A DNA stretch of 64,000 bases. Origin: an uncultured Oscillospiraceae bacterium. GTDB taxonomy: Bacteria; Bacillota; Clostridia; Oscillospirales; Acutalibacteraceae. The DNA is taken from positions 51,562 through 115,561 of the forward strand of contig UQSH01000001.1 of NCBI GenBank assembly GCA_900543795.1. Direction: 5' to 3'. The translations under genes were made by a program, and so were the position numbers. Below are positions 2,509-25,528 of the stretch, piece by piece. The notes under the pieces are model-generated. The model searched no databases and was not told the DNA's origin. It saw nothing but the letters and a program-made list of their open reading frames with translations. How positions within the stretch are numbered: the first letter of the stretch is position 1; each line of letters begins with the position of its first letter.

Positions 2509-2519
2509 GAGAATTATTT

Positions 2520-3848: not shown

Positions 3849-3864
3849 AAAAAGAGGGATTTAA

Positions 3865-4731: not shown

Positions 4732-4744
4732 TAGGAGACATATT

Positions 4745-7318: not shown

Positions 7319-7329
7319 GGATTAACACA

Positions 7330-9953: not shown

Positions 9954-10768
9954 AAAATATTTTAGATGCACCGTTTGTAAAGGAAATGTGCGATACAACA
10001 GCCAATATGTACCGCTTGGGTTGGGACGAGAGAAACGGCGGAAACATTAGCTATATGCTTGATAAAAATGAGGTTGCAGAGTATCTCGACCTTAACAATG
10101 TTATCCGTACAATACCAACAGGCTTTGATGCAGCAGATCTTATCGGCAAGATTTTTATTGTAACAGGCACAGGAAAATATTTTAAGAATGTAAAGTATGA
10201 TCCTGAAAACAATCTCGGTATTATTCGCATTGCGAAGGACGGTACAACTGCCGAACTTCTTTGGGGATACGCAGACGGTGGCAAGTTTACAAGTGAGCTG
10301 CCTGCTCATCTTATGAGCCATATGGCAAGACTTTCGGTTGATCCCGAAAACAGAGTTGTTATGCACTCACATCCAACAAATACACTTGCAATGAACTATG
10401 TTCACGAACTTGATGAAAAGAAATTTACGCATACTCTTTGGGAAATGTGCACCGAATGTATTGTTGTATTTCCAGATGGTATCGGCGTTCTTCCTTGGAT
10501 GCTTTGCGGAACAAATGAAATCGGCAAGGCAACTGCAAAGAAAATGGAAGAGTATAGGCTTGTTGTATGGGGAATGCACGGCATTTACGGTGCAGGCAAA
10601 ACTATGGACGAAACCTTTGGTCTTATCGAAACAGTCGAAAAGGCAGCACAAATTTATATGCTCACCGCACATCTGCCCAGAGTAAACACAATCAAGGACG
10701 AGGATATGAAAACCCTTGCCGAAGCCTTCGGTGTTGAATACAGAAAGGACTTTCTCAATTTAGATTGA
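9950..10768 (+). CDS. rhaD: rhamnulose-1-phosphate aldolase (class II aldolase/adducin family)
   Basis: 272 aa class II aldolase fold. ATGA overlap with rhaA, completing the rhaBAD order. TGA stop. Confidence 0.8.
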   Translation: MKNILDAPFVKEMCDTTANMYRLGWDERNGGNISYMLDKNEVAEYLDLNNVIRTIPTGFDAADLIGKIFIVTGTGKYFKNVKYDPENNLGIIRIAKDGTTAELLWGYADGGKFTSELPAHLMSHMARLSVDPENRVVMHSHPTNTLAMNYVHELDEKKFTHTLWEMCTECIVVFPDGIGVLPWMLCGTNEIGKATAKKMEEYRLVVWGMHGIYGAGKTMDETFGLIETVEKAAQIYMLTAHLPRVNTIKDEDMKTLAEAFGVEYRKDFLNLD

Positions 10769-10862
10769 TTTTCTGTCAACCACTTGAAAACAAAATTAAT
10801 TTTTGGTCTGGATATTCAAACTCCTTTGTGGTATATGTTTGTACTACAAGGGAGTTGATTTT

Positions 10863-11111
10863 ATGTCAATACTACAAGAATTGTGGTATGGGAACATTAG
10901 ACCAAATGAAGATAAGGTCATTACTGATGAGGAGAAAAAATTAGTTTCGCTGATTGCTCGGCATCACGAAACATTATCTTCTTCCCTAAAGAATGATGAC
11001 TTGGATGTGTTTGAAAAATATGTTGATTGCTTTACCGAGTATACCTCACTGATTGAATGTCAGGCATTTGAAATAGGATTTAAGTTAGCATTAAAATTGC
11101 TGAAAGAATAG
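10863..11111 (+). CDS. small hypothetical protein (mobile-element associated)
   Basis: 82 aa starting MSILQELWYG with AGGGAG RBS. First gene after the rhaD stop. No known domain recognised. Confidence 0.4.
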   Translation: MSILQELWYGNIRPNEDKVITDEEKKLVSLIARHHETLSSSLKNDDLDVFEKYVDCFTEYTSLIECQAFEIGFKLALKLLKE

Positions 11112-11143
11112 CCGGAGCTTGTTTACACTCCGGCTATAACTAT

Positions 11144-12118
11144 TTATTCAGTTCTAATTATCTCCAAAGCCTGTGCTTCGGATAGTTCATTATTCAAATA
11201 CATATTCTTGGCATTGACTGCTCTGTTAAGCCAAGCGGTGTATTCATCAGGTGATATTGCCTTTGGTGTTTCGCCGAATGTATATGCTCGTTCCATTCGC
11301 TTATACATTTTGTTCTTTTCCTTGTTAAAGGTCTGCAAAACCAAATCATTTTCCTCAAGCTTTTTGTGCTTCAGTAAAGGTCCGATTTGCTTGCAGGTCT
11401 TACCGTCCTTGAAAACTCTGTCACAGTACAGGGTTTTCTTTTTTGTCTTTGGAATGAAATACCTACTGCAAAGCTCACATTCGCAAACTGTTTCTTTTCT
11501 GTTGTAAAACAAGAGCATTAAATATTCGTAATAGTCCTTTACATAATCAAAAAACAGTAAGCTCTTTTCCTGTCCGTCAATATATGTGTAAACAGTCTTG
11601 CAGAAAACTGCTTTTGGAATTATTTCACTTAAATAATCTTCAAACAACTCTCTGTGGATTATACAAGGAAAGAAATTGCGTACCTTTCTTTGAATTACAA
11701 GAAGCTCATAAAGTCTAATGCTTAAAGTTGTTAGTGCCGTTTCAAGGCTTTTACTTGATTCGTAAGTGATTAGAATTTCTTTATCGCTTACAATCTCTGC
11801 AAATGTTCCCGAAAGCAAGGCTCCCAAGGTTTTGTTTCTCTGTCCTATTATCTCTGCAATCTCATAACACCTGTTGATTGCATTTCGCAATTCGTCTTCG
11901 TCCGGCTTGCTAATATCTATTAGATGCAACAGGTTATAAATCTCATCTTCTAAATCCCTGAAATCACAATCGCAGAAGCTTTGAATTTCCATTCTGTAAT
12001 CAACAGGCTTTAATTTTTTAACACCGTCATCACTAACCCAAAGTCGATGAGCAATATTTTTGTTTTGGAAATTAATATACAGTCCGTTTCTTAATTCAAT
12101 ATCTTTGTCCATAATCAA
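11144..12118 (-). CDS. hypothetical protein with internal Cys-rich zinc-finger-like motif
   Basis: 324 aa containing CECELCSRYF...CDRVFKDGKTCKQ (CxCxxC...CxxxxxxxxC). Sits inside the IME-like module. No confident family. Confidence 0.45.
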   Translation of the reverse strand: MIMDKDIELRNGLYINFQNKNIAHRLWVSDDGVKKLKPVDYRMEIQSFCDCDFRDLEDEIYNLLHLIDISKPDEDELRNAINRCYEIAEIIGQRNKTLGALLSGTFAEIVSDKEILITYESSKSLETALTTLSIRLYELLVIQRKVRNFFPCIIHRELFEDYLSEIIPKAVFCKTVYTYIDGQEKSLLFFDYVKDYYEYLMLLFYNRKETVCECELCSRYFIPKTKKKTLYCDRVFKDGKTCKQIGPLLKHKKLEENDLVLQTFNKEKNKMYKRMERAYTFGETPKAISPDEYTAWLNRAVNAKNMYLNNELSEAQALEIIRTE

Positions 12119-12227
12119 TCTTTCTTAAAAAAATCGTTTTTCACTAAAGCATAGTGATTTATTCTTTCCTGTATTACTATCATAACAGAAAGAGATTTCT
12201 CTTTCAATATTACGAAAGGAGTAAAAA

Positions 12228-12524
12228 ATGAAAACTGAATATCGCAAAGCCTGTTTCTTTCTGACACCGAATAAAATATTCGATGAAGGCTTAAAGCCAA
12301 GAGAGTTTATTGTGTATAGCTACCTGCTACGATGCGGTGATGCAAAAAGGCAATCGTTTCCTTCAAGAAAAAACATTGCAGAAAAATGTTCAATATCAGT
12401 TCCCACAGTTGACATTGCACTTAAAAATCTTGAAGAGGGCGGATTGATTTCCATTACACACAGAAACGATCCTCAAAACGGTAATCATCTATCGCACCTT
12501 TACACAGTCGAAAAAACTTGGTAA
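12228..12524 (+). CDS. winged helix-turn-helix DNA-binding protein (plasmid/ICE replication-initiator N-terminal-like regulator)
   Basis: 98 aa with AAGGAG RBS. Pattern REFIVYSYLLRC...SFPSRKNIAEKCSISVPTVDIALKNLEEGGLI is typical of a wHTH. Confidence 0.55.
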   Translation: MKTEYRKACFFLTPNKIFDEGLKPREFIVYSYLLRCGDAKRQSFPSRKNIAEKCSISVPTVDIALKNLEEGGLISITHRNDPQNGNHLSHLYTVEKTW

Positions 12525-12815
12525 GGGCTCGTAAGGACACCTGACAAAAAGAATATAAAGCACCTTGAAAATTGAATATTGAGAATAAGCAAAGTAATCG
12601 TCTGAAACACAAAACTCGATTGTAGGCAATTTGTGAGGGTGTTGCAGAGCTGAATTGGGGCTATGTACCGTAGTATTACCACGATATTATCTTAAGCAGG
12701 ATAAAGTGAGGCGTACCTCACGGTTCACATCAGCCGGCAGAGCCGACTGTTTTCAAGCCTTTAACCGACAACAGCTTAGGGGTAACTCAAATTTTGGAAG
12801 ATTGGAGGTACAAAT
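12525..12815 (+). promoter_or_regulatory. candidate oriT / structured non-coding region upstream of the RHH-relaxase genes
   Basis: 290 bp gap with a perfect hairpin GTGAGG-CGTA-CCTCAC (12706-12721) followed by imperfect inverted repeat CAGCCGG-N5-CCGACTG. The position 5' of mobC-like/relaxase genes is typical of oriT. Confidence 0.3.
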
Positions 12816-13217
12816 ATGGACAATATGAAAAAATATGCATTCTATATGCCTAAAAGCTTAATTGATGATGTTGATAATACAATCAACTCTCTTGGCAAAA
12901 TGTCAAGAGCAGAGTTCATTCGTGAGGCAGTTGATTTCTATATCGGCTATCTTAATTCACTGAGGGCAAGTGATTACCTGTCACCTATGCTCTCCCGTGC
13001 AATCAAAGGTGAGATAGAAAGCGTTGAAAAGAATGTCAGTGAAATGATTTTCAAATTGGCAGTTCAAAGCGCTGTTGCAAATATATTTATTGCAAACGGA
13101 TTAAATCTTGATACTTCTAACATTGATTATCTTACAAAGTGTGCAGCGAAAGAGATAGCAAAGCAAAACGGTATTATTGATTTAAAAAAGGCAAGTGAAA
13201 TGTTTAGAGCTGAATAA
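12816..13217 (+). CDS. ribbon-helix-helix protein (MobC/CopG-like relaxosome accessory protein)
   Basis: 133 aa with GGAGG RBS. N-terminal MSRAEFIREAVDFYIGY is an RHH signature. Stop overlaps the relaxase start (TAATG). Confidence 0.5.
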   Translation: MDNMKKYAFYMPKSLIDDVDNTINSLGKMSRAEFIREAVDFYIGYLNSLRASDYLSPMLSRAIKGEIESVEKNVSEMIFKLAVQSAVANIFIANGLNLDTSNIDYLTKCAAKEIAKQNGIIDLKKASEMFRAE

Positions 13218-14695
13218 TGGCACAGATAATTCTAAGCAGCAGATATATTAAAAATCCCAAAAAGGTTAATGCCGGAAAGCTTGTTAAGTATATGGGTACT
13301 CGTGAGGGAGTTGAAAAGCTACCTAAAGGTATTGAAATCAAGCCTGCAACAAAGAAGCAACAAGAACTTATAAATACAATTACAAACCGTTATCCCGAAA
13401 CAAAGGACTACCTTGAATACAAGTACTATGACAAAAGCAAAACAAAAAGCAGTGCAACGGAATTCATTGACGCAGTTGTTGAAAGAAATGCTGACAGAGC
13501 CGAGCAGTTAAAATCATTGGTTTCATATATGGCTCAGTGACCGAGTGTTGAAAGGATAGGCAGTCACGGATTGTTTTCAGCCACAGATGATGAAATCAAT
13601 CTTGATGAGGTTGCAGACAGAGTATCTAATCACGATGGAATTGTTTGGACTCATGTAATCAGCTTAACTCGTGAGGATGCCGAAAGATTAGGCTACAACA
13701 ATGCAGAGGCTTGGAAAAATCTTGTTCGAAGAAACGAGATTGAAATAGCCCAGGCGCACAAAATAAGCCAAGATGATATTGAATGGTACGGTGCGTTTCA
13801 CAATACAACGCATCACCCGCACATACATCTGCTTGTATATTCAAAATCAGGACAAGGCTATCTAACTGCAAAGGCAATAAAGGATATGAAATCATCATTT
13901 GCAAATGACATATTCCGTAACGAAAGATACAAGCTGTTCAAGGAACAAACAGAGATAAGAAATGAACTCAAGGATGAATTTAACTCTTATCTTGAACAAA
14001 TCAAAAACGGAGATATTGTTTTATCCGACAGAATGCTTAAGCTGGTAAACAATTTAAAAACACAATTGAATAACTACAAAGGCAAAAAGGTTTACGGATA
14101 TCTGCCAAATAAAATGAAAAGAACGGTTGATCAAATACAATGGTGCCTACTGCTTGACAACGAGGACCTATATTTTCTCTATCATTCTTGGAACGACATA
14201 AACAACAAAAAGCTATCAACATATTACGACAGCAAGAATAATTATGTTTACATTATTAATAACAAGGAGTTTCGTTCCGTAAAGAATGCAATCATAAAGG
14301 CAATAGACGAAATGGACATAACCGATAGCGCAGAGCAAAGCAGTAATGTAACAAACATCATTAATGATTTGACAAGACTGCTTGCAAATATGCTTTCGTT
14401 AAGTGCAGAAAAGAAAATGAAAAGTCTTAACTCTCAATCCATAGACCAAAAGCAAATGCAGATGATACTTGATAAAAAGCAGGCAAGAGGTCAAAGAGAC
14501 GGTGTTTCCAAAAATGACAAAAAGGAGGTTGATGAATCTAAATCACAAACTGCATCACAAAATCTTGAAGCTTTGTTTGAGCTTGGTGCTATGATGATTA
14601 GAAAGGCAGTAAGTCATAACAATGATTATGAATATGATTACAATAACGACAATAATGATTATGAAGAAGAACAAGGCTTTGATTTAACAATGTAA
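13217..14695 (+). pseudogene. MOBP-family relaxase (Relaxase/mobilisation nuclease domain) interrupted by an in-frame TGA at 13538-13540
   Basis: ORFs 13217-13540 and 13571-14695 are in the same frame. The N-terminal part carries the catalytic-Tyr region (KLVKYMGTRE, cf. RP4 TraI LVKYITDEQ). The C-terminal part carries motif II (THVISLTRED) and the His triad (HNTTHHPHIHLLVYS). TGA is a genuine stop in this genome, since rhaA and rhaD end in TGA. Confidence 0.7.
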
Positions 14696-14842
14696 CTAAA
14701 ACTAAAAAGTTCCGGCGAGCAATCGTCGGGCAGAAAGGAAATTAGAATGATTAAAAATATTATTACGATAGATGTAATTGCGAAAGGAGTGATGACATAA
14801 GGACAAGGTGCTTTTGCATAAGTTTCGTTGAGGCGATTGCTA

Positions 14843-15007
14843 ATGAAAACGAAAATCATTTTCGAAAATCAAAATGATTGTGCAAAAGACAAAAGCAAAG
14901 AATTTGAAGGTCAGTATATGAAAGCGATTTTACTTGCTCTGTTGGAGGGTGGAAAAATAAATCAGGCACAGTATGACGAGTGCAAAAGGAGGCTCAAAAT
15001 AAATTAG
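14843..15007 (+). CDS. small hypothetical protein upstream of the recombinase (possible directionality factor/regulator)
   Basis: 54 aa (MKTKIIFENQNDCAKDK...KAILLALLEGGKINQAQYDECKRRLKIN) with weak GAGG RBS. Speculative. Confidence 0.25.
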   Translation: MKTKIIFENQNDCAKDKSKEFEGQYMKAILLALLEGGKINQAQYDECKRRLKIN

Positions 15008-15105
15008 CTGGACTTTCAAATTACTTTGAATATAATGTGTGTTGAAAAAGGCAGGTGCCTTTACATCCGGTGCCTGCCTGTGAAAAAAACAGAAAGGAGA
15101 AAGTT

Positions 15106-16779
15106 ATGCTTAAAACTGATGACAGGGTACTGCGAGTGGCGGCGTACTGCCGTGTATCCACCGACAAAACGGATCAGGCAAATTCCCTTGAAAGTCAGCA
15201 ACGATACTTTAACGAGTACATAAGGCGAAATCCGCTGTGGGAGCTTTATAACATTTATGTTGATGACGGAATTACCGGCACAAGCACGAAAAAGCGTGTG
15301 GCATTCAATCAAATGATTGAGGACGCAAAGAGCGGTAAATTTGATTTGATTATCACAAAGGAAATCAGCCGATTTGCCCGAAATATTCTTGACAGCATCG
15401 GCTATACAAGAGAGCTGAAAAATTTAGGCGTCGGCGTAATTTTCCTCAACGATAACATAAACACTCTTGACAATGATGCGGAAATGCGACTTGCATTTTT
15501 CTCAACAATGGCACAGGAGGAAAGCCGAAAAACAAGCGAGCGTGTTAAGTGGGGACTGCGAAGGCAGATGGAAAAGGGTGTTGTTCTCGGCAGGGATATG
15601 CTTGGCTATGATGTGCGAAACGGACAACTCATCATAAACGAGGAGGGTGCCGAAACGGTCAGGCTGATTTACCACAAATTCCTTGACGAAGGCAAGGGTG
15701 CTCATAGGATTGCAAGGGAGCTTCGTGAGGAAGGAGTCAAGACCTCAACACGAATGAAAGATTGGTCATACACGGTTATTCTTCGCATACTGCGAAATGA
15801 AAAATACTGCGGCGACCTTATTCAGCAAAAGACCTACACACCCGATTATCTATCCCACAAAAAGAAACGCAACTACGGCGAAATGGAAACAGTGGAAATT
15901 CATAATCATCACGAACCGATTATTTCAAGAGAACGCTTTGAGGCGGTGCAAAGAGAGCTTGAAAGACGCAGACCTGCCGAAAGTACTGTGAAAGCCTTTG
16001 CAAACCGTTATGCACTGTCGGGTAAAATTGTCTGCGGCGAATGCGGTGCAGGCTTTGTAAGACGGCAAAAGAAACGCAAGGACGGCTCGTTTAATGTTAA
16101 GTGGGTGTGTGCCGAAAGTCAAAAGAACGGCTCGAAGCATAAAGAAAAGGACGGAACCTCCGCAGGATGTACGACAAATTCTGTCAACGATAGGGATATA
16201 AAAGAAATTCTGCAAAGTGTGGTTGCCGACACGATGGAGGGCAGATCAGAGGTTACAAGCTACCTGTTGCAGACGGTGGAAGCAGTTATTGAAGCAGTGG
16301 GCAAAAGCAATAACACCCACCACTTTGAAAAGGAAATTGAAAGGTGCAAGGAAAAGAAAAAAAGACTCCTCGATATGTGCCTTAACGGTTACATTGAGGC
16401 AAAGGAATACCGAGAAGCCTGTGATGAAATCACAATGCAAATTATTGACCTTGAAGAAAAGCTAAATCGTGAAAAGAGCAATCAAAAGATTATTGAGGAC
16501 AAGGAAAAGGTTATCGAGGATATAAGAGAATTCGTTGAAAATGTGTCCTGCGGTGCGGAGTGGAACGATACATTTTACCGCAACATAGTTGACAAAATCG
16601 TGGTTTACAAGAACAGAAAAATAGATATTCACCTAAAGCTGATACCTGAAAAGTGGCAGGCAAAAATCCTTGCAGGTGCGGGGGAAATTAACGCTTATGA
16701 GAGCAAAAAATCCTCTTGTGTATGCTCTACGCCGATATCGGTTAACAGACCTTTCAGCTCGGGCAACGGCATTGAATAG
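15106..16779 (+). CDS. large serine recombinase (resolvase catalytic domain + recombinase domain + zinc ribbon + coiled coil)
   Basis: AAAGGAG RBS. N-terminal AAYCRVSTDKTDQANSLESQ (catalytic Ser) and DDGITGTS resolvase motifs. CGECGAGF zinc ribbon. The C-terminal ~20 codons read into antisense cotJC DNA, so the true C-terminus is at or near the att junction. Confidence 0.85.
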   Translation: MLKTDDRVLRVAAYCRVSTDKTDQANSLESQQRYFNEYIRRNPLWELYNIYVDDGITGTSTKKRVAFNQMIEDAKSGKFDLIITKEISRFARNILDSIGYTRELKNLGVGVIFLNDNINTLDNDAEMRLAFFSTMAQEESRKTSERVKWGLRRQMEKGVVLGRDMLGYDVRNGQLIINEEGAETVRLIYHKFLDEGKGAHRIARELREEGVKTSTRMKDWSYTVILRILRNEKYCGDLIQQKTYTPDYLSHKKKRNYGEMETVEIHNHHEPIISRERFEAVQRELERRRPAESTVKAFANRYALSGKIVCGECGAGFVRRQKKRKDGSFNVKWVCAESQKNGSKHKEKDGTSAGCTTNSVNDRDIKEILQSVVADTMEGRSEVTSYLLQTVEAVIEAVGKSNNTHHFEKEIERCKEKKKRLLDMCLNGYIEAKEYREACDEITMQIIDLEEKLNREKSNQKIIEDKEKVIEDIREFVENVSCGAEWNDTFYRNIVDKIVVYKNRKIDIHLKLIPEKWQAKILAGAGEINAYESKKSSCVCSTPISVNRPFSSGNGIE

Positions 16780-16916
16780 CGCTGTGAGAGGTAGCGCAGA
16801 GAAGCCCCTAACTCGCCGTTCGGGCCTCCGTACTGCGATATTATCAGGCTTGCCGCCGCAGGATTGCACTTTTTAATGTTTATGGGATATTGAAGCTTTT
16901 TTATATAATTAAACAT
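16695..16916 (-). pseudogene. cotJC: truncated 5' fragment of spore coat protein CotJC (manganese catalase family). First ~64 codons only.
   Basis: Translation MFNYIKKLQYPINIKKCNPAAASLIISQYGGPNGELGASLRYLSQRYSMPLPELKGLLTDIGVE matches the CotJC/Mn-catalase N-terminus (KKLQYP..., YGG.nGEL.A.lRYL.QRY.MP, TDIGtEE). The frame then diverges (HTQEDFLLS*) where the recombinase gene begins. The same upstream motif as cotJB and ypeB is present. Confidence 0.7.
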
Positions 16917-17226
16917 AAAATCACATAGCCTTTCCAACTGCAAAAGTTTGTTTTGCACCGCCGATGCAGTTTTTCGTCGTGCAAAAATATGATAAAGGAG
17001 ATAATCATATAATTTAACTTATTCAGTCCATTGTATGCGAAAAGCTGCGTTTTGCTAACCTTACGGACATTTCATTGCGCTTCTCCTTTCTGCCATTAAA
17101 AAAGCGTCCTGTGTATATAAGACGATTAGACAGGAAATAAATAAATTGCAGAATGTATTATTTTTTGTTGTTTTTAGGGATAATATATGCTAAAATAATT
17201 TTATTACTAAAATAAAGAGGTTTAAA

Positions 17227-18177
17227 ATGAAACTTTCACTTGTTGTTCCCTGCTATAATGAAGAGGGAAATGTTGAAAAATTCTATTCAGAGGTTAAAAG
17301 GGTTTTTGACGGATGTGTTGAGGATTACGAATTTGTTTTCGTAAACGACGGAAGCAAGGACGAAACATATCATAAGCTTAAAAAGCTCTATGAAGAGCAT
17401 AAGGAATCGCAGATTCAGGTTTTGTCATTCAGCAGAAATTTCGGTAAAGAAGCCGCAATCTATGCAGGTCTTAACAGTGTTAAGGGCGACCTTGTGTGCC
17501 TTATTGACGCAGACCTCCAACAACGGCCGGAGGTTGTTTTGCGTATGCTTGATGTTATGCAGAAAAACGAAGAGATTGATTGCGTAACGGCATATCAGGA
17601 CGAGCGCAAGGAGGGCAGGCTGATGACAGCTATGAAATCTGCCTTCTATAAAATTATAAACGGCATTGCGGATGTTCCGTTTGTTAACGGCGCCTCCGAT
17701 TTCAGACTGATGAAAAGAAAAATGGTTGATGCAGTTATCGAAATGGGCGAGTATCACAGATTTTCAAAGGGTATTTTCAGCTTTGTCGGCTTCAACACGG
17801 AATATATTCCTTACACGGTTGAAGAGCGCGAAAGCGGAGAATCAAAGTGGGGCTTCAGAAAGCTTTTCAAATATGCTATTGAGGGTATTGTTTCATTTAC
17901 AACATTTCCTTTAAAATTATCAACATATATAGGGCTGTTTTCCTCGTTTGCTTCAATAATTTATCTTATCGTTGTTGTTATTCAAAAGCTTGCCTTCGGA
18001 ATAAATGTTCCCGGCTATGCAACAATTGTTGTGCTTGTTCTTCTCCTTGGAGGGCTTCAGCTATTCTGCCTCGGCCTTCTCGGAGAATATCTTTCAAAAA
18101 TATATGTTCAAGTTAAAAACAGACCTATCTATATTTTAAAAGAGCATCTCGGAAGTAAAGACAAAAAGGATATTTAA
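17227..18177 (+). CDS. gtrB: GT2 polyprenyl-phosphate glycosyltransferase (GtrB/CsbB/ArnC-like)
   Basis: 316 aa. LSLVVPCYNEEGNV and DADLQ (DxD) motifs, two C-terminal TM helices. RBS AAGAGG. Confidence 0.8.
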   Translation: MKLSLVVPCYNEEGNVEKFYSEVKRVFDGCVEDYEFVFVNDGSKDETYHKLKKLYEEHKESQIQVLSFSRNFGKEAAIYAGLNSVKGDLVCLIDADLQQRPEVVLRMLDVMQKNEEIDCVTAYQDERKEGRLMTAMKSAFYKIINGIADVPFVNGASDFRLMKRKMVDAVIEMGEYHRFSKGIFSFVGFNTEYIPYTVEERESGESKWGFRKLFKYAIEGIVSFTTFPLKLSTYIGLFSSFASIIYLIVVVIQKLAFGINVPGYATIVVLVLLLGGLQLFCLGLLGEYLSKIYVQVKNRPIYILKEHLGSKDKKDI

Positions 18178-18179
18178 TT

Positions 18180-18671
18180 ATGAAAAAAATAAAAGAGCTA
18201 TTGATTAAATACAAGGAATTGATAACCTATTTTGTTTTCGGAGTGCTGACAACGGTTGTTAACTTTGCGGCATTTTGGATTATCGACAGGGCTTTGGGCG
18301 ACAGGCTTTATCTTATCAGCAATGCAATTGCGTGGGTTATTGCCGTTGCGTTTGCCTATGTAACAAATAAAATTTGGGTTTTTGATTCAAAAAGCTGGGC
18401 ACCTAAGCTTGTTTTTAAGGAGATTTGCGAATTTGTTGCGGCAAGGCTTTTCAGCTTCGGAATTGAAGAGGGAGGCCTTTACCTTTTCGTAACAATTATG
18501 GGCTTCGGCAAATATTCGTTTACTCTTTTAGGAATTGAAATAACAGGTCAGCTTATCGCAAAGGTTATCCTTGCCGTTATCGTTGTTATTTTGAATTACT
18601 TTTTCAGCAAATTTATTATTTTTGCCAAGAAAAAGGATAAAAATAAAAACGATAAAACAGAAAAAGCATAA
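18180..18671 (+). CDS. gtrA: GtrA-family small membrane protein (glycolipid flippase-like)
   Basis: 163 aa with four TM segments. FGVLTTVVNFAAFWII...NKIWVF is typical of GtrA. Confidence 0.7.
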   Translation: MKKIKELLIKYKELITYFVFGVLTTVVNFAAFWIIDRALGDRLYLISNAIAWVIAVAFAYVTNKIWVFDSKSWAPKLVFKEICEFVAARLFSFGIEEGGLYLFVTIMGFGKYSFTLLGIEITGQLIAKVILAVIVVILNYFFSKFIIFAKKKDKNKNDKTEKA

Positions 18672-18697
18672 TCAAAGCAAAAACCGAAAAACACTAA

Positions 18698-18733
18698 ATG
18701 CCGCAAAAGCAAGGGCTTCTGCGGCATTTTTTA
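18698..18733. terminator. bidirectional rho-independent terminator shared by gtrA (+) and cotJB (-)
   Basis: ATGCCGCA-N14-TGCGGCAT stem flanked by an A-run upstream and a T-run downstream. Confidence 0.5.
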
Positions 18734-18783
18734 TCCTGCGTGATTACGATATAATCATAAAAGCACAGGCAAATATATTTTTT

Positions 18784-19017
18784 TTAATTATCCCACGGCC
18801 ACGGGTCTTTAAGCCATTCGTCCGTGTTTTCTCCGTTTAGGGTTAAAGGTCCGTAAAGGGACTCATATTCATTTTTAAGCTTTTCAAATTGCATTTTGTA
18901 TTTTCTGAAAAGTCTTTGCGCCTCTGCGTTTCCTTTGTGAGTGTCAAGATAAACATGCGTTTCCCACATTGCAAACTGTGCGGCGGAAAGCCTGTTTAAA
19001 AGCTGTTCTCTTTTCAT
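18784..19017 (-). CDS. cotJB: spore coat protein CotJB
   Basis: WETHVYLDTHKGNAEAQRLF...YGPLTL...DPWPWD matches the CotJB family (LYLDTHP..., PWPWx C-terminus). Start placed at the second ATG (19017). The first ATG (19029) lies inside the conserved upstream motif. Confidence 0.7.
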   Translation of the reverse strand: MKREQLLNRLSAAQFAMWETHVYLDTHKGNAEAQRLFRKYKMQFEKLKNEYESLYGPLTLNGENTDEWLKDPWPWDN

Positions 19018-19157
19018 AAAAATCTCCATAGCCTTTCCGGCTGCAAATATATTAATTAAAAATTCCTAACGCCTTATTGTAGCCGGATAAGGCGTATGAT
19101 GGGAATTCAGCCATCTCAAAATTATTTGAGGGCAATAAATAGTATTAGTGTGATTTT

Positions 19158-19373
19158 TCACACTATCACTCCTTTGCCTGTAAACGGCTTATCAAGCTCG
19201 GGAAAAAGCGTTCCTCTTTCAAGGCTCTTTTTTTCCTCTTCATATATAACGGGAGCCTGCTGAAAAGGAACATACGCCATGGCAACCGTTGCGTCAGACG
19301 GAAGCGGCGAGGGGATGCTGCTTTTTTTGCTTCTCAAAAAGCTCGGATTAAACATATCGTCAAAATCATGCAT
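19158..19373 (-). CDS. cotJA: spore coat-associated protein CotJA
   Basis: C-terminal AYVPFQQ...GTLFPELDKPF matches the CotJA motif. Start chosen at the internal ATG (19373), preceded by a GAAAGGCT element. The longer 127-aa ORF has no RBS. Confidence 0.55.
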   Translation of the reverse strand: MHDFDDMFNPSFLRSKKSSIPSPLPSDATVAMAYVPFQQAPVIYEEEKKSLERGTLFPELDKPFTGKGVIV

Positions 19374-19615
19374 AATAGCTTCAAGCCTTTCTGCCTGCGA
19401 TTGTTTCTCCGCCTTTGACTGCCGCAGGCTTGCAGACTGCGGAGCAAAAGAAATCCTTCTTATTCGGATTAATTTTTTTATTATAGGATTATCTCCCTCT
19501 GATTTATAATATGCCGGCGTGCGAAAAAAGTTTTTCGGCATATAATAGAATAGATGTTTAAAATTGCTGTTAATAGGTAAAACTATTTATGAAATTTAAA
19601 ACAAGGGTGATAATT

Positions 19616-19957
19616 ATGGTTGTTAAACGTGGGGATATTTATTACGCTGATTTAAGCCCTGTTGTTGGCTCGGAGCAGGGCGGAGTTCGTCCTGTTCTTA
19701 TAGTTCAAAACGATGTTGGCAACAAATATTCGCCAACGGTTATCGCCGCAGCAATAACAAGCCAGCGTGATAAAACAAATCTACCCACTCATATAGAGGT
19801 TGACGCAGGCAATTGCGGGCTTGCAAAGGACAGTATAGTTCTGCTTGAGCAGGTGCGCACAATAGATAAAAGGCGCTTGCGTGAAAAAATGGGAACGCTT
19901 GACAATGGGGATATGGGAAAGGTTAATGAAGCACTTTCCGTTTCCTTTGGTCTTTAA
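19616..19957 (+). CDS. ndoA: MazF/PemK-family endoribonuclease toxin (NdoA/EndoA orthologue)
   Basis: MVVKRGDIYYADLSPVVGSEQGGVRPVLIVQNDVGNKYSPTVIAAAITS is near-identical in pattern to B. subtilis EndoA. RBS GGGTGA. No antitoxin ORF in the 240 bp upstream or downstream. Confidence 0.85.
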   Translation: MVVKRGDIYYADLSPVVGSEQGGVRPVLIVQNDVGNKYSPTVIAAAITSQRDKTNLPTHIEVDAGNCGLAKDSIVLLEQVRTIDKRRLREKMGTLDNGDMGKVNEALSVSFGL

Positions 19958-20059
19958 AATGGGATTATCCTGATTTTATATCAGGTAATCCTTTTTTTGT
20001 TGCAATGAATGTAATTTAATGTTAAAATATAAAAGATATATTTGGAAAGAGGTTTAAAT

Positions 20060-20575
20060 ATGGATAGAATTGCACAGTTTGAAAAGGTCAGCTTTTCGCA
20101 GTTTGAGCAGGATTTTAAAAAGAATTTCCCGGAATGTGAGGATGTTAGGGCAGTTTATGATTCAATAAAGCTTCCCGTCAGAGCAACCTCCGGCTCGGCA
20201 GGCTATGACTTTTTTGCACCCGTTGATTTAACTCTTGAAAAGGGAAAATCGCTTTTAATCCCAACCGGAATTCGCTCGAGGATTAATGACGGCTGGGTGC
20301 TTAAAATTTATCCCCGCTCAGGCCTCGGCTTTAAGCACAGAGTACAGCTTGACAACACGGTAGGCATTATAGACGCAGATTATTATAATTCCTCTAATGA
20401 GGGGCATATTATGATTAAGCTTTCGTGCGATGCTCACGACGACGGCCACTCCGTTTCAATTTCAGCGGGAGACGGCTTTGCTCAGGGAATTTTCCTTCAA
20501 TTCGGTATAACGGTTGACGATAATGCAGTTGGCGAAAGAGACGGAGGCTTTGGCTCAACAACCAAGAAAAAATAA
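20060..20575 (+). CDS. dut: dUTP diphosphatase (dUTPase/dCTP deaminase superfamily)
   Basis: SGSAGYDF (motif 3-like) and C-terminal RDGGFGSTT (motif 5). RBS GAAAGAGG. Confidence 0.7.
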   Translation: MDRIAQFEKVSFSQFEQDFKKNFPECEDVRAVYDSIKLPVRATSGSAGYDFFAPVDLTLEKGKSLLIPTGIRSRINDGWVLKIYPRSGLGFKHRVQLDNTVGIIDADYYNSSNEGHIMIKLSCDAHDDGHSVSISAGDGFAQGIFLQFGITVDDNAVGERDGGFGSTTKKK

Positions 20576-20676
20576 ATAAACATTTATATAGGCAACGAAG
20601 AGGAATCCAAACCTGCCTAAAATGCGTTAATTTTTCAGCGTTTTTCATTTCTTTTATACATTATTTGCTAAAATAC

Positions 20677-20705
20677 TTGACTTTTTAAAATTATTTGTAT
20701 ATAAT
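20677..20705 (+). promoter_or_regulatory. sigmaA-type promoter for rpsU
   Basis: TTGACT - 17 nt - TATAAT, about 60 nt upstream of the rpsU GTG. Confidence 0.5.
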
Positions 20706-20764
20706 CTTGCTCGGATATTAAAGATATCAAATAACCCCTGACAGAGTCGGAGGGAGGGAATTAA

Positions 20765-20941
20765 GTGAGCCAGGTTAGAATTAAAGAGAATGAGTCTCTT
20801 GACAGCGCTATCCGCCGTTTCAAGCGTCAAACATCGCGCGACGGTATTATTCAGGAGGTGCGCAAAAGAGAGCATTATGAGAAGCCGTCGGTTGCTCGTA
20901 AAAAGAAGAGCGAGGCTGCTCGTAAAAGAAAGTATAAGTAA
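20765..20941 (+). CDS. rpsU: 30S ribosomal protein S21
   Basis: GTG start after GGAGGGAGG. 58 aa [58 protein letters not shown]. Below the 60-aa ORF-track cutoff. Confidence 0.85.
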
Positions 20942-20951
20942 TATATACATA

Positions 20952-20984
20952 AAGGGAAACGCAACCGTTTCCCTTAATTTTTTT
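20952..20984 (+). terminator. rho-independent terminator after rpsU
   Basis: AAGGGAAACG-caac-CGTTTCCCTT followed by a T-run. Confidence 0.6.
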
Positions 20985-21005
20985 GATAGAAACGGTTGAT
21001 GCTTT

Positions 21006-21443
21006 ATGAAAAAAATACTTGTTTTAAACGGTCCTAATCTTAATATGACGGGAATCAGAAAAAAGAATGTTTACGGTGCCGAAACGCTTAAAGATATTAA
21101 CGAAGAGCTTAAAGCATACGGAAAGGCAAACGGAGCAAGGGTGTCCTTCTTTCAGTCTAATCACGAGGGAGACATTATTGATGTTATCCACGAAAGCAAG
21201 GATGAGTTTGACGGCGTTGTTATCAATGCGGGAGCATATACTCATTATTCCTATGCGATAAGAGACGCTATTGAAGCCGTTTCGGATTTTACTCCTTTTG
21301 TTGAGGTGCATATGAGCGATATTCACAAAAGAGAGGATTTCAGAAAAATTTCCGTTATAACCGATGTTTGCGTAAAGCAGATATGCGGCTACGGTAAAGA
21401 CAGCTATAAAATGGGTATTGATTTATTAATGGAAATATTATAA
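21006..21443 (+). CDS. aroQ: 3-dehydroquinate dehydratase type II
   Basis: LVLNGPNLNMTG...VINAGAYTHYS...H.SDIH are AroQ signatures. Confidence 0.85.
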   Translation: MKKILVLNGPNLNMTGIRKKNVYGAETLKDINEELKAYGKANGARVSFFQSNHEGDIIDVIHESKDEFDGVVINAGAYTHYSYAIRDAIEAVSDFTPFVEVHMSDIHKREDFRKISVITDVCVKQICGYGKDSYKMGIDLLMEIL

Positions 21444-21488
21444 AATAGAAATAAGTTAATATAATAACACTACGGAGGTATAAAAATT

Positions 21489-22046
21489 ATGGTATCAGCA
21501 GGTGATTTCAGAAACGGCGTAACCTTTGAGGAGGACGGTAACGTTTTGCAGGTTATTGAATTCCAGCATGTTAAGCCGGGTAAGGGTGCGGCATTCGTTA
21601 GAACAAAAACTAAGAATGTTATCACCGGTGCGGTTACGGAAAAAAGCTACAACCCGTCGGCAAAATTCCCAACTGCATATATTGAAAGAAAAGAAATGGT
21701 TTATTCCTATAATGACGATGGACTTTATTACTTTATGGATCAGGAAACATTTGATATGATTCCCGTTGCAGAGGCTGAATTAAGCGATAACTTTAAGTTC
21801 GTTAAGGAAAATGATGTTTGCCGTATTCTTTCATATAAGGGCAAGGTTTTCGGCGTTGAGCCGCCAACCTTCGTAACTCTTGAGGTTACCAAAACAGATC
21901 CGGGCTTCAAGGGCAACACTGCAACAAACACCCTTAAACCCGCAACTCTTGAAACAGGCGCAGAAATCCGTGTTCCGCTTTTCATTAATGAGGGCGATTC
22001 CATCAGAGTGGACACAAGAACCTGCGAGTATATGGAAAGAGCATAA
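21489..22046 (+). CDS. efp: elongation factor P
   Basis: 185 aa. [16 protein letters not shown] loop region and OB-fold repeats. GGAGG RBS. Confidence 0.9.
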
Positions 22047-22075
22047 CCTAAATATTTTAACGGAGGGTAATCATT

Positions 22076-22471
22076 ATGAACACAGTTGAAAGCCTCGGCT
22101 ATCTTAAAGGGCTTCTTGAAGGCCTTGATTTTGACGGCGGAAAAAAAGAAACAAAAATGTTTAAGGCAATTGTTGATGTTCTTGATAATATTATTGAGGA
22201 TTTAGACACTGTAAACGAGGATATTGATATTCTTGCAGAGCAGGTTGACGATATTGACGATGACCTTGCGGCTGTTGAGGATTATCTTGCAGAGGACGAT
22301 TGCGATTGCTGCGGATGCGAAGAGGATGATGAATATTCAATTGTTTGCCCAAGCTGCGGCGAGGAAATCGTTGTTGATGAGCAAACAGTTATGGAGGGTG
22401 GCATTGAATGTCCTAATTGCGGCGAATATCTTGAATTTGAAATCGAGGATGAAGAAGAGGACGAGGAATAA
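22076..22471 (+). CDS. acidic zinc-ribbon protein (CD1247-N-like, conserved downstream of efp in Clostridia)
   Basis: 131 aa, extremely acidic, with CDCCGC...CPSCG...CPNCG. GGAGGG RBS. Confidence 0.45.
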   Translation: MNTVESLGYLKGLLEGLDFDGGKKETKMFKAIVDVLDNIIEDLDTVNEDIDILAEQVDDIDDDLAAVEDYLAEDDCDCCGCEEDDEYSIVCPSCGEEIVVDEQTVMEGGIECPNCGEYLEFEIEDEEEDEE

Positions 22472-22494
22472 GATAAACCGCTATAAAGAACTTA

Positions 22495-22524
22495 AAAGGC
22501 GCTCCGGCAACGGAGCGCTTTTCC
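22495..22524 (+). terminator. rho-independent terminator
   Basis: GGCGCTCCG-gcaa-CGGAGCGC followed by TTTTCC. Confidence 0.6.
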
Positions 22525-22561
22525 TTATTTAGAGGATAGGGGCGTGAACAAATGAGGCATA

Positions 22562-22774
22562 ATAGATTAAAGGGTGCTTTAACCGCATTGCTTTTGTGTG
22601 CGGTTGTTGCTTTTGCGTGATTTATATGCAGATGCGTTAAATGAAATGTTCCTTCATTTTAATGAAAGCAAGATCTCTGAAAATTTCAACGAAAGCCTTG
22701 ATTTGAACGCAGACGGATATATTAATATTCGAGATTACACATTGTTATATTATACAGGCAAGGCAATAAAATAG
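22562..22774 (+). pseudogene. gene remnant: signal peptide (frame A) fused out of frame to a dockerin-like repeat (DLNADGYINIRDYTLL)
   Basis: ATG at 22562 gives a 22-aa signal-peptide-like ORF ending at TGA 22628. The +1 frame encodes ...LYADALNEMFLHFNESKISENFNESLDLNADGYINIRDYTLLYYTGKAIK*, with a D1-N3-D5-N9-D12 Ca-binding dockerin loop. No intact ORF exists. Confidence 0.3.
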
Positions 22775-22822
22775 AAAAAGCACCAGGGAGCCGTGAATTG
22801 CTCCTTGGTGTTTTTTTGCGCC

Positions 22823-23122
22823 TTATTCAAGTGCGTCCCTTGCTGCATCGCCAACATCGGAAACGGCGTTTCCTGCTCCGCCAACTGCGTCGCCGACTGC
22901 TTCGCCGACATCGGAAGCCGCTTCGCTTGCGTTATTTGCGGCGTTGTCAGCCCCATTTTGTGCCGTGTTATCATATCTGTTTGTTGTAACGGTTGTTGCG
23001 TTCGTTGGAGCGGTTGTTGTTGATGTTGTTGTTGAATCATACTGCTTGTTATTGGCACAGCCTGTAAATGCCGAAACGGCAACCACGGCTGCAACGATTA
23101 ATATTAATGCTTTCTTTTTCAT
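22823..23122 (-). CDS. small lipoprotein, low-complexity (Thr/Ala/Asn-rich)
   Basis: Signal peptide with lipobox AFTGC. Bidirectional terminator hairpin at 22782-22816. Confidence 0.45.
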   Translation of the reverse strand: MKKKALILIVAAVVAVSAFTGCANNKQYDSTTTSTTTAPTNATTVTTNRYDNTAQNGADNAANNASEAASDVGEAVGDAVGGAGNAVSDVGDAARDALE

Positions 23123-23177
23123 AATATCGCCTTTCCTTTTGTTTTTTATAGTATTTGCAAAATAACGGGTTTTATTA

Positions 23178-24494
23178 TTATTTTGTTAAAATTCCGTTAT
23201 CGGAGTAAAGAAGCAGCAGAATATCTTCATCCACGCCCGTTTGTGCGTTTTTATAAATCAGAACCTCCTGCGAGCTGCTCTTGCTTTTGCAGTGATATTC
23301 AATGCAGTAAACCTCTGTGCCGTTATCCTTTGGAATAAGGCATTTTTTAGTTGAAATTATTTCAACATTCGGATTTAACTGCACGCTTCCTCCGTCCTGT
23401 GAAAAATCAGCACTCTGCCTGCTCTTGCGGTTCATAATATATCCTGTTGCCTCAACGGAATATATTTCTCCGTTTGAAAGCGAAACGCCAACCTTGATTA
23501 AATCGGGATAATAAATAACGCCGTTTTCACTGTAAGCAAAATTAATTACGCAAACATTGCTTTGAACTGAATAATAGCTTTCCTCCATATTTTTATATCC
23601 TATTTTGTTTAAAAATTCCCGAGCAATATTAACGGCGTTTTCCTCGGTAACAGACGATTGAGAAGCGTTTGAATCGTTCATAATATATGAAATATATCCG
23701 CCGTTTTTAGTTACGGCAACGGTGTAGAGCTTATAAGAGAAAACATAAGCCGGAATTTTTCCGTTTTCCTCTGTTTTATAAACAACTCCCTGCTCGCTGA
23801 CTCCGAGAATATCTGCAACAATTTTTCTGCATTCCTCTTTTGATTTTTCGCTTGAATTTTTCAAAAGCTCCGATTCCCTGTTTATAACCGCATCTGCGTA
23901 TGGGCCGTCATAAAGCAGGGTGGGGTAGTCGGAAAAGGTTTCCTCGGCAGATTTAAAATCAACAGAAATAGAGGAGTATTTCATCGCTCCGCCGTCTGCC
24001 GAAACAACCTCGTTTTCAGTTATCATTCCGCCTGCATTGCATCTGCTAACCATATCCTCGGTAAAATCGGAATATTTTTTTGCGTAGCCCAAAAGCTGAG
24101 ATATTCCCTCATAGTCTTCGGCTGTAAGCTCCTCCTTTTGAGATATACTGCGTGCATAATCTCCTGCCTGGCTTAAAAACTTATATATTCCGCTCAAATT
24201 CATTTGCTCAATCGGAAGTGAGGAAAGCGCACCCTTTGCCGTTGTGCATTCCGAATATATATCGCTCGAAACGGAGGAAAGCATATTTCCGGAGCTTGCA
24301 TACTGCACCTTTGTTAAATTTGTTTCAATTGAATCAAGACATTCGGAAAGCTCTGTTAAATTCCTTTGATAAGAGGCTTCAAGCTTTGTCTTATAGCTTC
24401 TGCTTTGCACACCGCCGATAATTGCAAATGCGGCCAAAGCTGCAACAAGGCAGATTGAAAAGGAGCAGAGACGCACAATGTTTCTTTTTTTCAT
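23178..24494 (-). CDS. ypeB: germination protein YpeB-like (N-terminal membrane anchor + PepSY-type domains)
   Basis: 438 aa with N-terminal TM. The region ...SSLPIEQMNLSGIYKFLSQAGDYARS resembles the YpeB Lx(L/M)PxxxN...L...GDFsyR segment. C-terminal PepSY-like repeats. Carries the same upstream motif as cotJB and cotJC'. Confidence 0.6.
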   Translation of the reverse strand: MKKRNIVRLCSFSICLVAALAAFAIIGGVQSRSYKTKLEASYQRNLTELSECLDSIETNLTKVQYASSGNMLSSVSSDIYSECTTAKGALSSLPIEQMNLSGIYKFLSQAGDYARSISQKEELTAEDYEGISQLLGYAKKYSDFTEDMVSRCNAGGMITENEVVSADGGAMKYSSISVDFKSAEETFSDYPTLLYDGPYADAVINRESELLKNSSEKSKEECRKIVADILGVSEQGVVYKTEENGKIPAYVFSYKLYTVAVTKNGGYISYIMNDSNASQSSVTEENAVNIAREFLNKIGYKNMEESYYSVQSNVCVINFAYSENGVIYYPDLIKVGVSLSNGEIYSVEATGYIMNRKSRQSADFSQDGGSVQLNPNVEIISTKKCLIPKDNGTEVYCIEYHCKSKSSSQEVLIYKNAQTGVDEDILLLLYSDNGILTK

Positions 24495-24736
24495 AAATAT
24501 TCACATAGCCTTTCCAACCGCAGATAATCTATGCCGAAAGCTCCCCGTGCGGTTTGTCGGGGCGGCATTGTTGTTTCGGCGTGCGTGCCGATGCTTGAAA
24601 AAATATGCTTCAAACTGATTTTGCCCTGTTTTTACGAAAACATACAAAAAAAGTCTTTTATTAAATGTATTTATTTGTTATAATAAACTGAATTTATATT
24701 CATAATTTTAATGTGTGAAAATGCGGAGCTAAAACA

Positions 24737-25528
24737 ATGACACTTGAAAACGGTAAAAAAAGAATAGTAGTTAAGGTTGGAACATCAACCTTAACGCATA
24801 AAACGGGAAAAACCAATATAGCCGTTATTGCAAAGCTTGCCTCCGTGCTTTCCGATTTGAAAAATGAGGGACATCAAATTATCCTTGTTTCATCGGGTGC
24901 AATCGGAATAGGTATGAGCAGATTGCGAATTAACGAAAGGCCGAGGGAAACAAAATGCCTTCAAGCTGCGGCGGCTGTCGGCCAATGTGAGCTTATGTTT
25001 TTATATGATAAGCTCTTTTCGGAATATGATGTTGTTGTGAGTCAGCTGCTTTTCACATCAGACGCACTCAAAAAGCCCGAAAGCAAAATGCATCTTATTG
25101 ACACCTTTAATCAGCTTCTTGATTATGATTGCCTGCCGATTGTTAACGAAAACGATTCTGTTTCGGTTGAAGAGCTTTTAAACGGAGATAACGATTGCCT
25201 TTCCGCAACCGTTGCCGCTCTTACCGATTCGGATTTGCTCATTCTTTTAACAGACACAGACGGACTTTATGACAGCAACCCCTCCGAAAATAAGGACGCC
25301 AAGCTTATTTCAAGGGTTGAGAGGATAGATGATAATATAAAAGCAATTGCAGGCGGTGCAGGTAAAAAGGGCACAGGCGGCTTCATAACAAAAATAAAAG
25401 CGGCTGAAATTGCCGTTAATGCAGGCATACCTGTTGTTATAACAAACGGTTCAAGACCAACCGATATATATCATATTTTAAGAAATCAGCAAACAGGAAC
25501 ATATTTTGAGGCGGTAAAAAATGATTAG
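24737..25528 (+). CDS. proB: glutamate 5-kinase (no PUA domain)
   Basis: VVKVGTSTLT, SSGAIGIG and GGF motifs. Followed by proA with a 4-nt overlap. Confidence 0.85.
   Translation: MTLENGKKRIVVKVGTSTLTHKTGKTNIAVIAKLASVLSDLKNEGHQIILVSSGAIGIGMSRLRINERPRETKCLQAAAAVGQCELMFLYDKLFSEYDVVVSQLLFTSDALKKPESKMHLIDTFNQLLDYDCLPIVNENDSVSVEELLNGDNDCLSATVAALTDSDLLILLTDTDGLYDSNPSENKDAKLISRVERIDDNIKAIAGGAGKKGTGGFITKIKAAEIAVNAGIPVVITNGSRPTDIYHILRNQQTGTYFEAVKND

Follow-up and report, generated by a model that had tools for sequence, protein, structure and literature searches.

How does the gene of a large serine recombinase (LSR) come to end inside a spore-coat gene, and could the element to which it belongs restore that gene during sporulation? 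This question is raised by a 64-kb stretch of an uncultured Oscillospiraceae genome (contig UQSH01000001.1; the whole stretch is hereafter called the window), where a gene whose product is homologous to CotJC/Mn-catalase, and which has cotJA and cotJB in its vicinity, breaks off next to an LSR gene read towards it. Taken as a whole, the window is best explained as holding the attR attachment site of an LSR integrative element that targets cotJC, in a copy that is not intact, the parts of this reading that concern excision and its directionality being putative; we give it a probability of roughly 0.7. Three features are needed from the outset.

15106..16779, plus strand: large serine recombinase, 557 amino acids (aa), apparently intact (Pfam, PHROG)
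16695..16916, minus strand: cotJC', open reading frame (ORF) of an N-terminal cotJC fragment, 73 aa (Pfam, tblastn, alignment to the intact allele L025)
16705..16760, no strand: attR junction (three-way comparison of attB, attR and attL)

An earlier note, made from the letters of the window, had placed a cotJC N-terminus at 16916, and the ORF beginning there indeed matches positions 1-65 of the 284 positions of Pfam Mn_catalase (E = 3.6e-17), its stop following nine codons beyond the end of the homology. Residues 1-62 are encoded by the host, while the last 11 codons (V63, E64 and HTQEDFLLS) and the stop come from the element end. The break immediately precedes the codons for EELGH, residues that by analogy with Mn-catalases supply metal ligands, so that the fragment would not be able to act as an enzyme. 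When the full-length CotJC was used as a tblastn query, only residues 1-64 were matched in the whole window (16916-16725), and neither the reconstituted nor the intact CotJC found a distal half in the 64 kb. Thus, the distal two-thirds of the gene do not lie beside the presumptive left end of the element, as had been reported; the genes that follow cotJC in related genomes (among them cupin and GH2) also have no match in the window.

The 557-aa product of the convergent gene is, as had been proposed, a large serine recombinase, because it combines the Resolvase (PF00239, E = 5e-32), Recombinase (PF07508, E = 8e-27) and Zn_ribbon_recom (PF13408, E = 1e-8) domains. It has a YCRVST motif near the N terminus and matches the PHROG 95 integrase (E = 9e-131); in the phage database, the best recombinase is no higher than 46% identical to it, and against the NCBIfam XisF model it scores 110.7 bits, under the 375-bit cutoff. 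The LSR gene overlaps cotJC', and its last 15 codons with the stop (16732-16779) are antisense cotJC DNA; hence the antisense origin of this end was correctly recognised, but the number of codons, earlier put at about 20, is lower by comparison with L025.

This locus, L025 (comparison loci and contigs are given by L numbers), is an intact allele of the same species, which encodes a 208-aa CotJC beside an identical GT2 protein and shares 98.9% identity with the window along 2.36 kb, the identity ending at window position 16732. We compared uninterrupted sites (attB: L025, L036, L038 and L040) with attR (the window, L001, L021, L031 and L032) and with attL (L122-L127 and L037). On the cotJC sense strand, attB reads ...ACCGATATCGG before and AACGGAGGAATTGG after the junction, attR in the window reads ...ACCGATATCGG before and CGTAGAGCATACACAAG after it, and attL of L122-L127 reads TTGTGTGTGCTCGACAGG before and CACGGAGGAGCTTGG after it; L116-L127 and L001-L005 belong to a sister lineage (approximately 92% nucleotide identity in cotJC) and not to the species of the window. 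The only bases common to attB, attL and attR are GG, the crossover dinucleotide, which occupies positions 1 and 2 of codon Gly62 (plus strand, CC at 16732-16733). The host (B) arm of attR starts at 16734 and runs rightwards, and the element (P') arm, CTTGTGTATGCTCTACG, extends up to 16731. The element arms TTGTGTGTGCTCGACA and TTGTGTATGCTCTACG form an imperfect inverted repeat, 13/16 identical, centred on GG, and inverted-repeat arms about a central dinucleotide are the usual build of an LSR attP. In the related loci, attR and attL joined at GG restore ...TDIG-TEELGHLEM..., as in the intact allele. Thus, the alignment to uninterrupted cotJC of relatives, which the earlier note had recommended, defines attL, attR and the 2-bp crossover. 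The palindrome CCGATATCGG, which the same note had described next to the break, is indeed situated there, but it spells the cotJC codons T-D-I-G and is found in the uninterrupted allele too; since the empty site carries the same sequence, it is a part of attB, that is, of the host and not of the element. A search allowing three mismatches found no attL-like arm in the 64-kb window, the lone match at 44366 being at chance level.

The same site is interrupted in many other genomes. All of the 120 best database matches of the 73-aa fragment are truncated proteins (65-123 aa), which have in common the break after TDIG.E and carry at least three different tails. Among the matches listed, about 11 of the 80 species-representative genomes with a close CotJC relative have the interruption at codon 57-62. 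A metagenome scan yielded approximately 25 relatives of the LSR (53-95% identity), every one of which abuts antisense cotJC codons 1-65, and the clade also takes in the types represented by L007 (52% identity) and by L112 (39%). Complete elements, with both cotJC halves in the same orientation and in register, are approximately 8 kb (L007/L008), 10.7 kb (L136, which is the same contig as L037), 6.1 kb (L112), 5.1 kb (L115) and 3.8 kb (L073) long. As far as alignments can tell, integration is demonstrably site-specific, with attB, attL and attR defined and the whole LSR clade strictly tied to the site. At L030, four tandem serine recombinase genes (7104-13371) are situated beside a cotJC N-fragment; one of them is a truncated relative of the window LSR and the other three are about 25% identical.

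If the window held a complete element, attL would be expected to the left of the LSR gene. What is found there is the following.

10769..14750, plus strand: mobilizable-element backbone (Pfam; shared with L013-L019)
10803-11111, plus strand: DUF6809 (Pfam)
11144-12118, minus strand: DUF6076 (Pfam)
12228-12524, plus strand: HTH_36 (Pfam)
12816-13217, plus strand: RHH (Pfam)
13217-14695, plus strand: MobL relaxase, broken by a nonsense codon (Pfam, E = 8e-21)
14621..14750, no strand: join between a tyrosine-integrase-type backbone (left) and the LSR module (right); assemblies disagree at the repeat boundary

Positions 1-14750 are 98.8% identical to a chromosomal rhamnose locus present in many strains (L013-L019), and over 9000-10996, an interval that spans the junction between rhaD and the element, the window shows no differences from L014, L017 and L018. 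The presumptive left end near 10769 is therefore not attL, but the rhaD junction of a different element, of the tyrosine-integrase type: in other strains, the same backbone next to rhaD has an intact MobL, an excisionase-like HTH_17 gene and a 400-aa tyrosine integrase. The relaxase, RHH and HTH_36 genes with no conjugative transfer genes (Pfam) identify an integrative mobilizable element, similar to those of Firmicutes with a MobL, RHH and HTH backbone and no conjugation machinery, and with exchangeable integration modules; one and the same MobL backbone is accompanied by a tyrosine integrase in some loci and by a serine recombinase module in others. The window differs from typical elements of this kind in that its relaxase is a pseudogene and its ends come from two different integration systems. 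A CGA to TGA nonsense mutation at 13538-13540 splits MobL into ORFs of 107 and 374 aa; the gene is intact (489-492 aa) in all strains compared. Among the matches listed, the distal cotJC half was present in other species only (at most 91% identity) and not in the window's own, and exact look-ups of the C-half protein P0121 and of the window HTH_36 variant found neither on record. Beyond the rhaD-linked element, many strains (L013-L020) carry an acetyltransferase gene, an Aminoglyc_resit-family gene and then strain-variable DNA, L020 being a deleted variant.

The homology to L013-L019 ends at about 14750, approximately 50 nt past the MobL stop, where the integration modules differ. Of two same-strain assemblies, L023, a 105.7-kb scaffold, matches the window with 100% identity but extends only to 14625, and L021 has no mismatches over 14621-25899 and 11 mismatches clustered in 14539-14620; other-strain contigs likewise end between 14527 and 14671. 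Phasing of single-nucleotide polymorphisms in the MobL region yields a mosaic among strains, in which the 14539-14620 patch is the sole clean switch. The 3' segment of MobL is a repeat common to both element types, the LSR and the tyrosine integrase one. The contig passes through this shared repeat, where assemblies end or diverge, so that the join reflects either chimeric assembly or genuine recombination. We slightly favour a chimera, assembled across the MobL segment that both elements have in common; homologous recombination between the two related elements is somewhat less probable, though a serious candidate.

If the arrangement is real, the rhaD-linked element and the cotJC LSR element would have recombined via their shared MobL, and the intervening DNA would have been deleted or inverted, leaving attR stranded and cotJC beyond restoration by simple excision in this strain. 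Such an event, to which we give rather less than an even chance, would account for the window being one contiguous sequence, whose left junction is the rhaD/element junction of other strains and whose right junction is an authentic attR. The MobL 3' ends linked to LSR and to tyrosine integrase genes are mosaic across strains, which indicates frequent exchange, and the relaxase nonsense mutation fits a decaying remnant. However, a scaffold stopping at 14625 and a different 82-bp variant left of the join in L021 are the signature of an unresolved repeat. Besides, no other contig links rhaD to the LSR, as all 22 rhaD contigs read (22/22) contain the tyrosine-integrase element or the deleted variant.

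The earlier note had offered two other explanations of the missing half, that the element is much larger, with the left end beyond nt 1 and the rhamnose cluster as its cargo, or that the distal part of cotJC was deleted. The former agrees with the distal cotJC and attL not being found in the window and with the size of some relatives (over 10 kb in L037/L136 and L137). But the cluster and the element downstream of it occur in many strains with a tyrosine integrase, variable right flanks and no LSR or cotJC nearby, and to the clusters of these strains that of the window is 99.8-100% identical, while the LSR module varies from strain to strain. Hence we consider so large an element highly improbable and have rejected the rhamnose cluster as its cargo. 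The deletion is not supported either, the LSR module being joined through a shared MobL segment at which the assemblies disagree. In general, since the window contig joins two mobile elements via a shared module, neither a giant element nor a loss of the distal half should be argued from it without read-level checks. As both attL and the distal half are absent from the window, simple excision cannot rebuild cotJC there. From the initial proposal of a skin-like LSR element in cotJC, site-specific integration and the assignment to the class of sporulation-gene interrupters are retained, but the copy in the window is one-ended. The earlier interpretation is hence partly supported: the integration of an LSR element in cotJC is real and probably of the skin-like class, but in a one-ended copy that cannot rebuild the gene alone.

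The window-type LSR is not the only recombinase that uses cotJC as a target. A second site is left unoccupied in the window.

16815..16836, no strand: unoccupied second cotJC site, codons ~27-34 (L116-L121)

This site is used by a 481-aa LSR, 26% identical to that of the window, in the sister-lineage loci L116-L121 and in several species representatives. In L116-L121 the gene for this LSR is situated directly upstream of cotJC from codon ~27 and is co-directional with it; L119 contains a complete element of the codon 27-34 site, approximately 7.5 kb long. The elements of L116-L121 are prophage-like, with S24 repressor, VRR_NUC, PcfJ/PcfK, ParB and HicAB genes. In a third, tentative group of loci, the cotJC similarity ends at about codon 178 and another LSR is encoded just downstream. 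Here belong L082, L085, L090 and L095, and also L041, L070, L094 and L103, where the similarity ends near this codon and a serine recombinase gene follows 0.5-1 kb downstream, or the 3' end is duplicated; in the alternative layout, a second copy of codons ~166-200 is found 2-3 kb downstream of an intact cotJC. A third integration site may therefore exist at the 3' end of cotJC, with the element possibly supplying a substitute end. In six metagenome loci (L130, L134, L138, L145, L147 and L148), cotJC is cut at least twice, the order being the window-type LSR, cotJC codons from ~25-31 to 64, and the unrelated LSR of the second type. At L145, the distal cotJC piece also ends at codon 178.

We turn next to what accompanies the recombinase. 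Directly upstream of the LSR gene we observe the following features.

14797..14835, plus strand: promoter-like motif, composed of ATA (14797-14799), 17 nt and GCATAAGTT, which includes the -10 element CATAAGTT (14817-14824)
14843..15007, plus strand: 54-aa ORF (beside the LSR in approximately 27 loci, 45-100% aa identity)
15009-15036, plus strand: sigma-70-like promoter TGGACT-16-TATAAT (consensus scan, 10/12 matches, a consensus match only)
~15048-15080, plus strand: inverted repeat between the sigma-70-like promoter and the LSR gene (sequence reading)

The product of the 54-aa ORF is basic, and no match to it was found in Pfam, PHROG or NCBIfam; it is a candidate recombination directionality factor. 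The -10 element CATAAGTT of the promoter-like motif lies 19 nt before the ATG of this ORF, and GAGG approximately 10 nt before the ATG. About 45 nt preceding the ORF are common to 19 distinct elements, with ATA, GCATA, TTT and GAGG invariant, while the sequence farther upstream is not alignable among them; the ORF itself decreases to 45% identity between elements that still keep the motif. The spacer of the motif contains GGACAAG, which we take to resemble the B. subtilis SpoIIID box. The L007-type elements have a similar but weaker layout (AATA for CATA), on which we do not rely. In C. difficile, both sigmaE and sigmaK promoters have a CATA-type -10, the sigmaE -35 is ATA, and a spacing of 16-18 bp is "classical" (PMC3789822). 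The ATA-N17-CATA motif before the 54-aa ORF may hence be a mother-cell promoter of the sigmaE type. The conserved motif is immediately preceded by a mini-ORF of 17 codons (MIKNIITIDVIAKGVMT; 14747-14800), which contains a strong GAAAGGAG-like sequence towards its end and terminates at a stop codon overlapping the invariant ATA; comparable mini-ORFs are present in several related elements.

The closest known arrangement is that of the C. difficile skin element in sigK, where a sigmaA promoter with inverted repeats serves the recombinase, CD1231, while the directionality factor, CD1234 (72 aa), depends on sigmaE and SpoIIID and is transcribed from a site 14 bp before its start codon (PMC5025042). 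In both cases, an LSR is encoded at one end of an element that splits a sporulation gene, which is a mother-cell gene in skin and probably also in cotJC elements; a promoter, of the sigmaA type in skin and a sigma-70-like consensus match in the window, and an inverted repeat precede the LSR gene; and a promoter of the sigmaE type, or in the window a motif resembling one, is situated near the start of a small protein. This parallel of the promoters of cotJC elements with the skin layout is suggestive. The differences are the target (cotJC, not sigK), the small ORF, which has 54 aa, is basic and lies directly upstream of the LSR, and the horizontal mobility and changing cargo of the cotJC elements; the window copy, moreover, is without attL.

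The proposed mechanism is as follows. The LSR recognises a site of approximately 40 bp inside cotJC and recombines at the GG of codon Gly62; a sigmaE-type promoter would drive the 54-aa directionality factor in the mother cell; and intact elements would be excised in the sporulating mother cell, so that cotJC is rebuilt as sigK is in C. difficile. Provided that both the 54-aa factor and the sigmaE promoter hold, excision of intact elements in the mother cell with the rebuilding of cotJC has, in our estimate, just under even odds. The broader proposal is that cotJC of many uncultured gut Clostridia is developmentally rearranged, with up to three independent LSR elements, loaded with defence and mobilization cargo, residing in it during growth and excised in the mother cell through sigmaE-driven factors, the elements being inherited via the unrearranged forespore genome and still horizontally mobile. 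We regard it as unlikely at present; if true, one spore-coat gene would need several programmed excisions.

The composition of the elements bears on these proposals, as well as on the opposite one. Across the family, the LSR and the 54-aa ORF form the constant unit, whereas the cargo differs. The closest LSR relative from another species (L137, 1-9000; 95% LSR identity and an identical small ORF) carries a type I restriction-modification system, which matches the attL-side cargo of L122/L123, with two HsdS genes flanking a tyrosine recombinase (phase-variable, shufflon-like), and also Fic and RhuM genes; judging by these genes, L137 is a defence island carried within cotJC. Elsewhere the cargo includes transport and molybdoenzyme genes (L037), a Mob_Pre relaxase (L112) and, in some elements, acetyltransferase genes. 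Identities of the LSR and of the host CotJC are incongruent, being 95% and 82%, respectively, for L137, but 77% and 91% for L135/L136. Relative to L024 of the same species, the synonymous divergence (dS) of the LSR is 0.13 versus 0.02-0.07 for host genes; relative to the sister lineage, it is 0.15 for the LSR and element versus 0.22-0.54 for host genes. Comparisons of this kind demonstrate, at the level of divergence, that the elements spread horizontally and turn over at the cotJC site. The ratio of nonsynonymous to synonymous divergence (dN/dS) of the cotJC N-half is 0.025 relative to L001; as the divergence of the hosts (dS 0.22-0.54) predates the element (dS 0.15), a dN/dS test of split alleles is uninformative.

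All this could also be expected from ordinary mobile elements that use cotJC as a safe landing site, with no developmental excision, so that the carriers are without CotJC. Such plain insertional inactivation is in our opinion possible, at somewhat less than an even chance. It would be consistent with the relaxases (MobL in the window, Mob_Pre in L112), the defence or metabolic cargo, the horizontal spread and turnover within species, the sigma-70-like promoter before the LSR gene, and the coexistence of the intact allele L025 in the same species. Besides, B. subtilis cotJC mutants have no apparent spore defect, according to work cited in a passage of PMC12122855, and cotJC may hence be merely a tolerated landing site. 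On the other hand, three unrelated LSR lineages have converged on one small sporulation gene, resembling the bias of skin, SPbeta, vfbin, gin and yin towards mother-cell genes; no extra frameshift or stop was found in approximately 36 split cotJC pieces examined; and the sigmaE-like motif is kept even between elements with no more than 45% identity in the ORF.

Returning to the reading that we prefer, an integrative element of cotJC with attR in the window and putative excision in the mother cell, we note several points that weigh against it. The window holds attR only, so that the element is not bounded on both sides within 64 kb; the left boundary in the window is the rhaD junction of another element, and the window relaxase carries a nonsense codon. 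The 54-aa ORF resembles no known directionality factor in Pfam, PHROG and NCBIfam. The bare ATA-N17-CATA pattern is weak, with five matches in the window versus 1.2 expected, and the sigmaE consensus used is that of C. difficile, which may differ from that of these uncultured gut Oscillospirales. The tolerance of cotJC loss in B. subtilis mentioned above counts here too, as does the resemblance of the elements, with their relaxases, defence cargo and horizontal spread, to ordinary mobile elements. Finally, excision of the cotJC elements is a prediction from sequence.

Intervening elements of sporulation genes are known from other targets: reviews name sigK, spsM, spoVFB, spoVR, gerE and yabG. 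The earlier note had supposed that none had been described in cotJC. However, this target is not new, since a 2021 preprint (bioRxiv 10.1101/2021.11.22.469490) names cotJC among the frequent targets of integration with reference to Abe et al. 2013 (Mol Microbiol). Compared with that work, as represented in the citing passage, the target is the same, whereas the att sites, the three sites per gene, and the small ORF with its motif come from the present analysis. Our literature search for cotJC in connection with serine recombinases, intervening elements or prophage integration found no characterization of cotJC elements; as far as this search extends, the att sites, the several sites in cotJC, the constant unit of the LSR and the small ORF, and the conserved motif are undescribed.

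SPbeta (SprA/SprB, in spsM), vfbin, vrin, gin and yin are serine-recombinase elements, some prophage-like and others not of phage type, in late spore-envelope genes, excised in sporulation (PMC4191935, PMC5595907, PMC10747680). Their hosts are Bacillus, Geobacillus and C. botulinum, whereas the hosts of cotJC elements are uncultured gut Oscillospirales, named Ruminococcaceae, Acutalibacteraceae or 'Eubacterium' in the contig records. As in gin, the minimal constant unit of cotJC elements comprises a recombinase and a small factor, the latter represented here by the candidate 54-aa ORF. Unlike these elements, those of cotJC carry mobilization or defence genes and not phage genes, and, in contrast both to them and to skin, their excision is a prediction. 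The Anabaena fdxN element with XisF has a serine recombinase of the same broad family, but the phylum and genes are different and the recombinases are not closely related, so that it provides an analogy only; still, the terminally differentiated heterocysts of Anabaena excise more than one element, and in cotJC several elements can split one gene.

So far, the rebuilding of sporulation genes by programmed excision is established for only a few Bacillus and Clostridium species in culture. Should the cotJC elements act alike, the phenomenon would extend to abundant spore formers of the human gut, and carriage of defence systems and mobilizable elements would be tied to the spore life cycle. Genome engineering would also profit, gaining a set of recombinases that act on a defined 40-bp target as well as a small protein that is a candidate directionality factor.

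The native neighbourhood of cotJC is preserved to the right of attR.

17227-18177, plus strand: GT2 glycosyltransferase, native gene between cotJC and cotJB (Pfam)
18180-18671, plus strand: GtrA-like protein, native gene between cotJC and cotJB (Pfam)
18784-19017, minus strand: cotJB, intact (Pfam CotJB, E = 3.3e-24; 77 aa gene call in related contigs)
19158-19373, minus strand: cotJA, intact (Pfam CotJA, E = 4.4e-15; 71 aa gene call in related contigs)

Both cotJA and cotJB are thus intact at the positions first assigned to them and lie on the expected side of cotJC', but they are not contiguous with it, as had been assumed, being separated by the GT2 and GtrA genes. L025 and L021-L024 have the same order, which is thus native to the species. 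The window also encodes a YpeB homologue, whose score against TIGR02889 (274 bits) is under the 303.55-bit cutoff. In C. difficile, cotJC-like genes are sigmaK-dependent (PMC3789822). Upstream of cotJC', at 17030-17058 on the minus strand, there is the sequence CATACAAT, scanned as TTAGCA-17-TACAAT, which could contain a -10 box of the mother-cell type. Directly beside cotJA, at 19589-19957, the window encodes a PemK/MazF-type toxin; PemK-family genes are also found inside cotJC elements of the L007 type.

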